In this document: positions 54,501-56,442 of the stretch, piece after piece
Numbering within the stretch: the first letter of the stretch is position 1
How the letters are laid out: every line of letters begins with the position of its first letter
The notes under the pieces: model-generated
The model's input: the letters and a program-made list of their open reading frames with translations, nothing else
The model's database searches: none
What the model was told of the DNA's origin: nothing
Position numbers and translations under genes: made by a program
Source: Syntrophales bacterium
GTDB taxonomy: Bacteria; Desulfobacterota; Syntrophia; Syntrophales; UBA2210
Direction of reading: 5' to 3'
Assembly: GCA_963666365.2 (NCBI GenBank)
Contig: CAXXNF010000001.1
Coordinates: 217,281 to 281,280, forward strand
DNA length: 64,000 nt

Positions 54501-56442
54501 CTTCGGCTACATCACCATGTTGAGACCGCCCCTGTGGAACGACAGTTTCTACGAATACGACAGGGACAACAATCTGATCAAAGCCACCGATCCGTTGAGA
54601 AGAGCCACCTACAACGGCTACGACAAGAACGGACGGCTTTATATGACAAGAGACGCCCGGAATAACACCGTATACCGCTACTACGACAAGGAAGGAAACC
54701 TGGTCCGGCTCAGAGACCAGCGTGCCAACGAAACCCGGTTCGATTATGACTCGAACGACCGGTTGACGGACACTACCGACCCGCTGGCACGAACCATCAC
54801 CTACACCCGTGACGCTCTGGGCCGCATTGCGGAACAGACAAACAAACGGGGGCAGAAGGTGGCGTTCTCCTACGACGGAGAAGGCCGCATGACATCAAAA
54901 CGATATGACGGCACGGAGGAAGCGGCATACACCTACGATGCCGCCGGTAACCTTACCCAAATGATCGATGACTGGGGAACCACCACATATGACTACGATG
55001 AGCGAAACCGGGTAACCGCAATCACCTATCCGGACACTATGACCCTTTCTTTTACCTACGACGAACTGGGCAACTGCAGTTCCCTCACCTACCCCGACGG
55101 CCAGACGGTACGCTACACCTACGACGATGTGAACCGGATCACGATACCGCGGGGCCTGAGAAACGGCGCCAATATCGAAATACGGCCGAACAGGGAAAAG
55201 CCGAACCGGATCACCGCCATGAACTGGGGGGAGACTCACTCCGTCACAGGCGACTATGACCCCGCCGCCCGTTTGATCACACAGACCCGCTCAAACGGCG
55301 CCGTGACCGAGTTTTCCTACGACGCCAACGACCGGGTAACGGGGATCAATCACAAAAAAGGGGACACCCCCCTTCTCGAACTGAATTATACCTATGACGA
55401 CGCGGACAACCTGCTTTCCGAACTTTCCTCAGATCCCGTCACACCGGCCGTGAGCGATGCCTCCCTGGCAGCGACTGTCGACGCCGCCAACCAAATCAGC
55501 CGGCTGGGAAGCGACACGTACACCTTCGACAGCGACGGCAATCGAATCGGAGTAAGCAGTGGTCAATTCGCCGCCGTCTACGACCCGGAAAACCATGCCA
55601 CGCAGATCACCCGCAACGGGGTCGCCGCCGCCTGCACCTACGACGGACAGGGCATGATGGTGCAGCGCACAGTGGACGGCGAGACCACCACCTACCACTA
55701 CGACGATGCGGGACGCCTCCTTTTTGAAACGGATAGTTCGGGCGCCGTGAGCAACACCTATATATACATGGGCAGAAAACCGGTTGCCATGGGAACAAAG
55801 GACAGCGGATACAGGTTCTTTCATTTCAACAACCTCGGAAACACGCTCGCCCTGACCGACGCGACCGGTTCGGTCATCAAACGGTACGCCTACCAGCCTT
55901 ACGGGGCCGCGACCGGCAGTGGGTCAGAGATTTCGAACCTCTTCACCTTTGTGGGCGCTCACGGCGTCATGGATCTGGGCGACGGCCTGTTTCTGATGAA
56001 ACGCAGGCTCTACGACGCCCGGAGCGGCAGGTTCCTGCAGACCGACCCCATCGGCATCGCCGGCGGGATCAATCTTTACACCTATGCCGAGAACAATCCC
56101 CTGCGCTACATCGATCCCGAAGGCACCTCAATCCTCCTTGCTTACGCGGCAGGTGCAGCTATAGTCGCTCTCGCAGTGGTCATTTTGACACCAGCCGACG
56201 ACACAAAAGATGCCGACCAGACGACAGATGCCGGCTTTCACGAACATGCCGAGCAGGCAGCTGAAAATAGGGTGAAGGGTGCACAAAAAGTGAAAGAAGC
56301 CAAAGGTACGGGAAACAAGTTCAGAGCCTTTACGGACGCGTACTATGAATCCAAAGAAGATACTCGTAAATTGGCTCCAAAGGCGGGTGAGGAGGCAGTA
56401 GAGAAAGTCGGAAAGGGGTACTTACGGGTACTAAGGCGTTAG
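51514..56442 (+). CDS. Sec-signal RHS/YD-repeat protein with an N-terminal PQQ/BamB-like beta-propeller and a short TM-containing C-terminal tip (copy 1)
   Basis: ATG at 51514 with an AGGAG RBS, and signal peptide [28 protein letters not shown]. PQQ-like repeats include [18 protein letters not shown] and [16 protein letters not shown]. The DUF6531-like block is [33 protein letters not shown]. About 40 YD repeats follow. The core end is [41 protein letters not shown]. Confidence 0.9.
   Translation: [1642 protein letters not shown]
54789..56099 (+). repeat. 1311-bp tract apparently 100% identical to 60451-61761
   Basis: Same sense translation, and identical antisense track ORFs (54895-55239 = 60557-60901; 55429-55824 = 61091-61486). 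Spot checks of several lines are identical at a constant offset of 5662. Confidence 0.8.

Follow-up and report, generated by a model that had tools for sequence, protein, structure and literature searches.

Short orphan tips of two tandem RHS proteins from a Syntrophales bacterium: mosaic alleles and a possible membrane-targeting cargo

Introduction

Two tandem RHS proteins, RHS-A and RHS-B, are encoded in a 64,000-nt stretch of DNA (the window, to which all coordinates given without a contig name refer) from contig CAXXNF010000001.1 of a Syntrophales bacterium, and each ends in a short C-terminal tip of 104 aa (RHS-A, 56128-56439) or 101 aa (RHS-B, 61790-62092), followed by a stop codon. We report here that the tips form an orphan sequence family, known only from one small clade that comprises the source genome and a few metagenome contigs, and that the tip is a mosaic in which each segment has two or three alleles that recur in different organisms. 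Our best explanation, in which confidence and doubt are evenly balanced, is that the tip is a cleaved, shell-enclosed, non-enzymatic, membrane-targeting cargo of a Sec-exported RHS protein. An earlier note on this DNA had singled out the tips as unusually short payloads that combine a hydrophobic helix with a hypervariable charged patch between conserved ends, in an otherwise homogenised gene.

Architecture of the proteins and their tips

RHS-A and RHS-B share the same order of parts: a signal peptide, a PQQ/BamB-like beta-propeller, DUF6531, a YD/RHS shell, an Rhs-associated core, and the tip. Pfam finds RHS_repeat in 12 stretches of each protein (3e-70 and 2e-70) and, in RHS-A, PQQ_2 (1e-20) and DUF6531; the PQQ_2/BamB-like repeats (residues ~33-210) and DUF6531 (~500-575) both lie N-terminal to the shell. 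NCBIfam adds Rhs_assc_core (TIGR03696, 4.5e-18) and TIGR01643 (1e-53), and solved Rhs shells match the RHS shell at E-values of 1e-44 to 1e-25. With repeats, core domain and catalytic dyad all present, we take both to be bona fide Rhs/YD-shell proteins on the basis of their sequences. No PAAR, VgrG or other type VI secretion system (T6SS) domain was found in the RHS proteins or the scanned neighbouring genes.

Between core and tip, both proteins carry an aspartyl-protease-type motif (Table 1), whose end reads LRYIDPEGT in RHS-A and IKNIDPEGT in RHS-B. The aspartates of DPIG and DPEG are 23 residues apart in RHS-A, RHS-B and the four orthologous proteins described below (L009, L012, L014 and L018), and both catalytic aspartates are kept in six of six. 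A catalytic dyad and a DPxG(L) cleavage site are known from TcC and Rhs proteins (PMC10684867, PMC13018210), and because the 23-residue spacing fits that dyad we assign the motif, from the literature, as autoproteolytic. Alignments to the solved shells of Rhs, Tc and teneurin-like proteins (TLPs) end at, or a few residues from, the cleavage site; that to chain 9pt5_A of the Bacillus inaquosorum teneurin-like protein (BiTLP; Raoelijaona et al., Nat Commun 2026; PDB 9pt5, 9ifo) runs to residue 2146, two beyond L2144, the last residue ahead of the BiTLP cleavage site (PMC13018210).

Translation of 56008-56460 and 61670-62110 reproduces exactly the tips of 104 and 101 aa after NNP(L/I)..IDPEGT that the earlier note had quoted. 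The first 22 tip residues are strongly hydrophobic by both measures used, the Kyte-Doolittle 19-residue mean (KD19; 2.75 in tip A and 2.62 in tip B) and the summed Hessa dG (-2.7 and -2.3 kcal/mol), so that the first helix is predicted to be transmembrane (TM)-competent, as that note had suggested. The flank after the helix is strongly acidic, with a net charge of -4 to -5 in its first 15 residues. Overall the tips are 63% identical, and they re-converge, as claimed, over the last 29 residues. The intervening 50-53 residues were thought to differ almost completely; they are indeed diverged, but they align in frame and have the residues F, A.Q, QKV.EA, TG and R in common, and are thus diverged homologues rather than unrelated inserts.

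An AF2 model of the tip, computed from a two-sequence alignment (pTM 0.60), has a low-confidence helix at residues 2-19, a disordered acidic linker at 20-31, and three helices at 34-57, 64-82 and 88-103 with pLDDT values of 74-86. Each tip contains only one hydrophobic helix and no Trp. A C-terminal sorting signal of the LPXTG, PEP-CTERM or GlyGly-CTERM type was considered and rejected: about 80 structured, net-neutral residues follow the helix, with neither a signature motif nor a short basic tail at the extreme C-terminus.

The tips are not unusually short after all, for the usual size of Rhs and TLP tips is ~15 kDa and the BiTLP tip has ~92 aa (PMC13018210). The hydrophobic start is common too: a Gly/Ala-rich hydrophobic beginning is present in six of ten related RHS proteins with a locatable cleavage motif (a small and possibly biased sample), where it precedes diverse, longer tips.

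The tips form an orphan family

Pfam and NCBIfam searches with the tips returned noise only and no enzymatic family. A hidden Markov model (HMM) of the tip, run against 1.84 billion representative proteins, recovered only RHS-B of the window and one spurious repetitive protein; a tip profile gave no match below E=1 among all PDB sequences, and the best Foldseek matches of the tip model in PDB have E ~1 and are all generic helical bundles. The earlier note's view that no enzymatic signature is visible is thus upheld in Pfam, NCBIfam and the PDB profile search, and these searches together with Foldseek reveal no known toxin or immunity fold, a match to which would have counted against that note's account. 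A word-indexed search for homologues of the tip came back empty and missed even the parent protein; with the last 304 aa, all matches were <=510 aa long. Because tips within long proteins escaped this search, we relied instead on the HMM search, which is exhaustive, and on a cluster look-up. Genome contigs scanned with the tip alignment contained no relative, a second genome-contig scan yielded only shells of 25-32% identity (Kroppenstedtia, Marininema and others), and a scan of metagenome contigs only a contig already known.

The protein cluster of RHS-A contains two further members, P0004 (contigs L009-L011) and P0005 (L012). All four contigs have a single RHS gene followed by a small partner gene, at the same site beside an RND efflux pair, so that the pair in the window arose by tandem duplication in its own lineage. 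Homologues of the partner gene led to more distant orthologues, on L014 (with L015-L017 as shorter contigs of the same locus) and L018, whose shells are ~65% identical. In all six orthologous proteins the DPIG...DPEGT motif is retained, with a short tail of 101-125 aa after it. The tails of L014 and L018 are homologous to one another (32% identity, E 7e-12), and have only a weak colinear motif, E(E/D)IR..P...E.VE, in common with the window-type tails. In L014 a RelA/SpoT-like protein and a reverse transcriptase of group II intron type (RVT_1 + GIIM) are encoded after the RHS module (11386-12793), neighbours that suggest a more mobile context than that of the syntenic locus in the window.

Gene conversion and mosaic alleles

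The RHS genes are not, as had been supposed, homogenised outside the tip. RHS-A and RHS-B are 82% identical overall, and sliding identity profiles show complete identity only over a tract of ~1.27 kb (Table 1). In the N-terminal third DNA identity is 50-80%, so that this part is as divergent as the patch (~60%), and the lowest protein similarity between the two copies falls in the propeller, not the tip. A 100% identical tract within genes otherwise 50-97% identical suggests that the tandem copies recently underwent gene conversion, with assembly collapse in the source contig as another possible source.

The tract is followed by a 60-nt divergent piece that spans the PxxxxDP motif, and then by the helix block, which is 98.9% identical at the nucleotide level between RHS-A and RHS-B. 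L009 and L012 carry a different allele of this block (LAFLIPYALGAAVVGLTYVALTP), with 53% nucleotide identity, ~50% amino acid identity and dS of ~1.1; its hydrophobicity is no more than marginal (dG +2.0). Because the block is homogeneous within the genome yet diverged in the orthologues, the conserved start of the tip is a product of intragenomic homogenisation, and the conserved flank that the earlier note had seen there is a gene-conversion artefact.

Downstream of the helix the two tips have different affinities. The distal patch, C-terminal end and partner gene of RHS-B are 88-100% identical to L009; within tip B, nucleotides 109-306 (61898-62095, the distal patch and conserved end) are 97.5% identical to L009, L010 and L011, a match that leaves out the first 42 nt of the B patch. 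The C-terminal end and partner gene of RHS-A are 85-100% identical to L012, and the terminal allele of tip A reaches 98.6% nucleotide identity to L012 over 69 nt. The A patch is a third allele, 58-65% identical at the nucleotide level to all others, and the L012 patch is a derivative of the B/L009 type. Segments have thus been shuffled between lineages, and the tip behaves as the recombination cassette that had been suspected.

Substitution pattern in the variable patch

Ratios of non-synonymous to synonymous substitution (dN/dS) were calculated by the Nei-Gojobori method for the six pairs among RHS-A, RHS-B, L009 and L012. Shell segments give 0.18-0.35 in every segment and every pair. For the patch the values are 1.47 (A-B), 1.66 (A-L009), 1.90 (A-L012), 1.13 (B-L012) and 0.55 (B-L009), and the L009-L012 pair has dN of 0.14 with dS of 0. 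Windows in the patch rank top for pN-pS gene-wide in five of the six pairs, and enrichment of non-synonymous over synonymous changes relative to the shell is supported at p 1e-4 to 5e-10 in five pairs and at p=0.055 in B-L009. The tip is the fastest-evolving part of the protein relative to its orthologues, with pN of 0.40-0.43 vs 0.02-0.06 in shell segments. A strict excess of pN over pS is nominally significant in one pair only, L009-L012 (p=0.015), in which 18 of the 19 nucleotide differences in the patch lie at codon positions 1-2 and none is synonymous. The patch therefore has a large and real excess of amino acid changes, which is compatible with the diversifying selection that the earlier note had proposed but not cleanly separable from relaxed constraint, which explains most of the data equally well.

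The concentration of L009-L012 differences at codon positions 1-2, with no synonymous change, superficially resembles the variable repeat of a diversity-generating retroelement (DGR). We nevertheless regard it as very improbable that either a DGR or a frameshift, sequencing or assembly artefact produces the variable patch. No template repeat or second patch copy is present in the window or within 10 kb in loci L009-L012, no DGR-type reverse transcriptase lies near the RHS gene in the loci examined (that of L014, ~2.3 kb downstream, is of group II intron type), and the A-rich patch codons (GAA CAA AAA) are invariant in four of four sequences. Frameshift and sequencing error, which the earlier note had raised as a way in which its account might fail, are excluded: only the annotated frame (frame 0) is open and similar, and alleles recur in independent assemblies, as the B-type patch does, with 97.5% nucleotide identity, in three from metagenomes. 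A reading of the tip as antisense or alternative-frame coding sequence was also rejected, as no other frame explains the substitutions better.

A conserved secreted partner downstream

A small secreted protein of ~127-134 aa is encoded 3' of every RHS gene examined, including the unrelated PD40-type RHS gene in the window (Table 1). It consists of a signal peptide, YD hairpins that begin at the predicted mature N-terminus, and two dockerin/EF-hand-like repeats (GDVDxNxxVDLADAI); one relative, P0038, passes the Dockerin_1 cut-off. The partner is far better conserved than the tips, with 54-60% identity in orthologues that have barely alignable tips. It may serve in shell binding or display; one literature search found no description of such an RHS partner.

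Other small open reading frames (ORFs) near the RHS genes were considered as immunity candidates. A GTG-initiated ORF of 57 aa with a strongly hydrophobic segment overlaps the stop codon of partner B. It is the sole membrane-protein-like immunity candidate, though it is probably non-coding: stop codons break up its equivalent after partner A, and no counterpart lies behind the L009 and L012 partners. ORFs of 96, 83 and 117 aa in L014 have no family matches, and orphan tip/immunity cassettes are absent.

Proposed function and alternatives

In the explanation that we favor, RHS-A and RHS-B would be exported by Sec and then fold, with the tip as the C-terminal cargo of the RHS/YD shell, and the aspartyl-protease dyad (DPIG...DPEG) would cut after T1538. 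This would leave within the shell an 11-kDa all-helical peptide composed of a hydrophobic Ala/Gly-rich helix, an acidic linker and a small three-helix bundle. Upon release at a target, the hydrophobic helix would enter the membrane from the outer or periplasmic face, with the short tip N-terminus crossing the membrane and the acidic flank staying outside; the net charge of that flank fits insertion from the outer face. The peptide would presumably act without catalysis, permeabilising or depolarising the membrane or disturbing a membrane protein. Two processes account for the conserved-variable-conserved pattern between the copies: gene conversion has homogenised the 3' shell and hydrophobic helix, and recombination redistributes among relatives the two or three old alleles that exist for each segment. 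In addition, the surface of the helical bundle would be under relaxed or diversifying selection.

Several observations weigh against a membrane-targeting cargo. The strong helix is not family-wide (Hessa dG is +2.0 in L009 and L012 and +2.6 in L018, and L014 has no helix), and a helix with dG of -2.7 is expected to act as a stop-transfer signal in SecYEG. The locus is syntenic, chromosomal and vertically inherited, and the tips appear to diverge in place, with no swap for unrelated toxin folds. Delivery machinery for RHS-A and RHS-B is not evident, and the AF2 model of shell plus tip, built from a shallow 17-sequence alignment, is too poor to place the tip (pTM 0.33, tip pLDDT <50). In the four closely related loci, none of the downstream genes is of immunity type, and since a toxin arms race predicts a cognate immunity gene, this weakens the arms-race reading. 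The partner gene does not co-vary with the patch, as the A and L012 partners are near-identical but their patches are only 58-65% identical. The lack of an immunity gene, the variable hydrophobicity of the helix, the vertical locus and the expected arrest in SecYEG keep three rival explanations alive.

The tip could be a neutral filler, a cleaved and largely unfolded tail that fills the shell or aids its folding and has no effector role, with a near-neutral patch and a conserved end that contacts the shell interior. Such a role would sit well with a patch dN/dS that is statistically indistinguishable from 1 in five of the six pairs, with vertical and syntenic inheritance and no immunity gene, with a hydrophobic helix that is dispensable in L014, and with the largely disordered state of encapsulated Rhs cargos in cryo-EM maps (PMC10684867). 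We consider it possible but unlikely: tail length and helical character are retained across 65%-identical orthologues, as is the catalytic dyad, the E(E/D)IR..P...E.VE motif persists at colinear positions, and the wholly non-synonymous differences between the L009 and L012 patches are not neutral drift. Alternatively, the helix could be the stop-transfer segment of a type-I inner-membrane precursor, with propeller and shell in the periplasm and the 80-aa bundle in the cytoplasm, from which autoproteolysis sheds the ectodomain or yields a two-chain receptor. Both RHS proteins have predicted N-terminal signal peptides, the helix (dG ~-2.7 kcal/mol) is well inside the translocon integration range, the bundle is soluble, charged and predicted with moderate confidence, and no toxin-type gene is adjacent. 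We find a membrane anchor rather improbable, because the acidic residues that follow the helix contradict the positive-inside rule, and the helix starts one residue past the cleavage site, a position inside the cocoon in solved shells (PMC13018210, PMC10684867) with no linker to a bilayer; the hydrophobic segment is, moreover, weak or absent in orthologues, and raised dN/dS is not expected in a cytoplasmic signalling tail.

A bipartite cargo, in which the helix is only an entry or translocation element (cf. CdiA-CT entry domains) and the bundle acts as a novel effector by binding to a target in the cytoplasm or the membrane, would explain selection on the bundle surface. It is also consistent with the disordered acidic linker between helix and bundle, which recombine independently, with the homology of L014 and L018 in the bundle part and a hydrophobic extension in L018 only, and with the hydrophobic starts ahead of diverse, longer tips in other RHS proteins. 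However, an effector of ~70 aa would be very small, the bundle has no match among known toxin folds and families, and there is no immunity gene, and we think this version has a slim chance of being correct. Comparably little weight goes to a non-toxin reading, in which the RHS proteins and their conserved partners form an undescribed envelope display or recognition system without immunity genes: the tip would stay in the producer's inner membrane as a TM helix with a cytoplasmic bundle, the patch and its alleles would encode self/non-self or partner specificity, and the whole would resemble a teneurin-like receptor with a TM tail of its own.

Comparison with known systems

Among known systems, BiTLP appears to resemble the RHS tips most closely in working principle. 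It has a Sec signal, a propeller, a YD shell and DPxG...DPxG autoproteolysis, and its C-terminal domain of 92 aa is hydrophobic and enclosed by the shell, with a predicted TM segment and no enzymatic fold; this domain inhibits growth of E. coli and admits propidium only if sent to the periplasm (PMC13018210). RHS-A and RHS-B share the Sec signal, propeller, YD shell, cleavage motif and short hydrophobic tip (92 vs 101-104 aa), and dedicated delivery machinery is known for neither. They differ in that the tips have no sequence similarity and contain no Cys for a BiTLP-type disulfide, the helix starts at tip residue 2 rather than ~20, the propeller is PQQ/BamB-like and N-terminal to DUF6531 in place of the order of FN-plug, NHL and shell by which teneurin-like proteins such as BiTLP are defined, and the gene 3' of the window's RHS genes is not of immunity type. 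With Pfam models, no NHL or teneurin FN-plug match was found at E<=0.01 in RHS-A or RHS-B, although both combine a predicted Sec signal with a putatively cleaved C-terminal domain within the limit of about 15 kDa that marks teneurin-like proteins.

The cargo proposed here would also be akin to Tse5-CT of Pseudomonas aeruginosa (PA2684), an Rhs-encapsulated pore former for which cleavage is essential for activity (PMC9637101, PMC10684867). Tse5-CT is a non-enzymatic, alpha-helical, membrane-inserting cargo of an Rhs cage, is freed by the aspartyl-protease dyad that RHS-A and RHS-B also carry, and acts preferentially from the periplasmic side, as we propose for the RHS tips. It is, however, larger (149 aa) with several TM or amphipathic helices, and Tse5 is delivered by a T6SS (PAAR-like N-terminus, VgrG) and paired with the 2-TM immunity protein Tsi5, whereas the window proteins are predicted to use Sec and have none of these; their match to Tse5 is confined to the shell, with no similarity between tips. 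The Tox-WTIP pore-forming domain, defined by two membrane helices and RxxR and Wx[ST]IP motifs (Zhang et al. 2012, PMC3482391), is likewise a small, hydrophobic, non-catalytic C-terminal domain able to follow RHS repeats, but neither motif occurs in the tips, which have a single hydrophobic helix and lack Trp. Classical Rhs/WapA toxin-immunity modules have in common with RHS-A and RHS-B the RHS shell, the Rhs core, and a tip bounded by PxxxxDPxG that is the most variable and recombining part, and differ in having an adjacent immunity gene and in exchanging folds, where the tips in the window diverge in place.

The orphan tip thus probably joins a known kind, the shell-encapsulated, non-enzymatic, probably membrane-active RHS cargo, and is not a new type of system; current understanding is not overturned by it. 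If membrane-active, it would add a very small (11 kDa) all-helical orphan from an uncultured lineage, with Sec used rather than T6SS, to the short list of non-enzymatic Rhs/YD payloads (Tse5-CT, BiTLP-CTD). The loci offer a natural series for dissecting the parts, with the same shell, a helix that is strong, weak or absent, and three patch alleles. Of most interest among the loose ends are the absence of an immunity gene and the constant YD-dockerin-like partner, rather than the short hydrophobic payload; the first two bear on how a Sec-exported shell is displayed, how its cargo is delivered, and whether it has non-toxic roles, a question raised for teneurin-like proteins.

Features of the locus and its surroundings

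Table 1. Coordinates of the RHS-A and RHS-B genes, their tips and partners, and other features; positions are in the window unless a contig is named.
Feature	Coordinates	Strand	Remarks
RHS-A	51514..56442	+	from ORF list; 1642 aa counted from ATG; exact protein in public collection is P0003
RHS-A signal peptide	51514..51597	+	predicted Sec (SPI-type); read from translation
RHS-A N-terminal propeller	51600-52900		residues ~30-470
RHS-A aspartyl-protease motif	56044..56127	+	DPIG-x19-DPEGT; D1511, D1534; predicted cut after T1538; from translation
Tip A residues 1-22	56128..56193	+	Ala/Gly-rich hydrophobic helix; conserved face YAxGAAxVxL
Tip A residues 23-75	56194..56352	+	acidic linker and helices 1-2, variable patch; A-type allele, seen nowhere else
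Tip A residues 76-104	56353..56439	+	conserved end and amphipathic last helix (alignments; muH 0.72); terminal allele common to L012
Partner gene A	56577..56960	+	127 aa; signal peptide, YD hairpins (TYTYD...), dockerin/EF-hand-like repeats; Pfam RHS_repeat 3e-07, Dockerin_1 0.03
RHS-B	57254..62095	+	1613 aa (P0001); tandem paralogue of RHS-A
RHS-B aspartyl-protease motif	61706..61789	+	DPIG...NNPIKNIDPEGT; from translation
Tip B residues 1-22	61790..61855	+	hydrophobic helix
Tip B residues 23-72	61856..62005	+	variable patch; B-type allele, common to metagenome orthologue L009
Tip B residues 73-101	62006..62092	+	conserved end; VKGTFRALRQ allele, common to L009
Partner gene B	62217..62600	+	127 aa; near-identical to L009 partner P0033
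57-aa ORF	62597-62770	+	GTG start; probably non-coding
Tract identical between copies	54800..56067 vs ~60462-61729	+	~1.27 kb, 100% identical
Third RHS gene	32333-37645	-	1769 aa
Partner of third RHS	31855-32259	-	small secreted protein of same type
Tandem paralogous ORFs	30757-31146; 31319-31708	-	129 aa each
Giant secreted protein	37833-46856	-	3006 aa
Formate-dehydrogenase-like gene	12915-15608	-	in-frame TGA at 14547-14549
Partner genes elsewhere	L009 15063-15446; L012 15015-15398; L014 9989-10372; L018 5823-6206

The N-terminal propeller of RHS-A matches BamB/YfgL, with PDB BamB chains at E ~2e-6. It may be a mere binding platform or, more speculatively, may dock to the Bam machinery for surface exposure.

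Upstream of the RHS pair are the RND efflux pair and a giant, adhesin-like secreted protein of 3006 aa, which lies between the RHS loci and contains beta-helix/NosD, four Lcl_C, DUF11/CARDB and InlB-B-repeat-like domains. Together with the three RHS genes it looks like a cell-surface or adhesion neighbourhood. The third RHS protein combines a signal peptide with DUF6531, a PD40 propeller and a YD shell, in a domain order that resembles the teneurin superfold. Its protease motif is degenerate, the first catalytic Asp having been lost (SPEP instead of TDPIG), and its helical, Cys-containing tail of 175 aa has no hydrophobic helix and no family match. Just 3' of this module are two tandem paralogous ORFs with signal peptides, several conserved Cys residues (…CWRFGLGCRPWHCANNYTTPDYW…) and no Pfam match, whose products might be accessory or immunity-like proteins of the third RHS.

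An Rfam scan of the window gave no match. Elsewhere in the window, a formate-dehydrogenase-like molybdopterin oxidoreductase is cut into two ORFs by an in-frame TGA; the context of this codon, IDHCART*HAPTVAGL, corresponds to the classical selenocysteine position of FdhA-type enzymes, and this is therefore very likely one selenoprotein gene rather than two genes.

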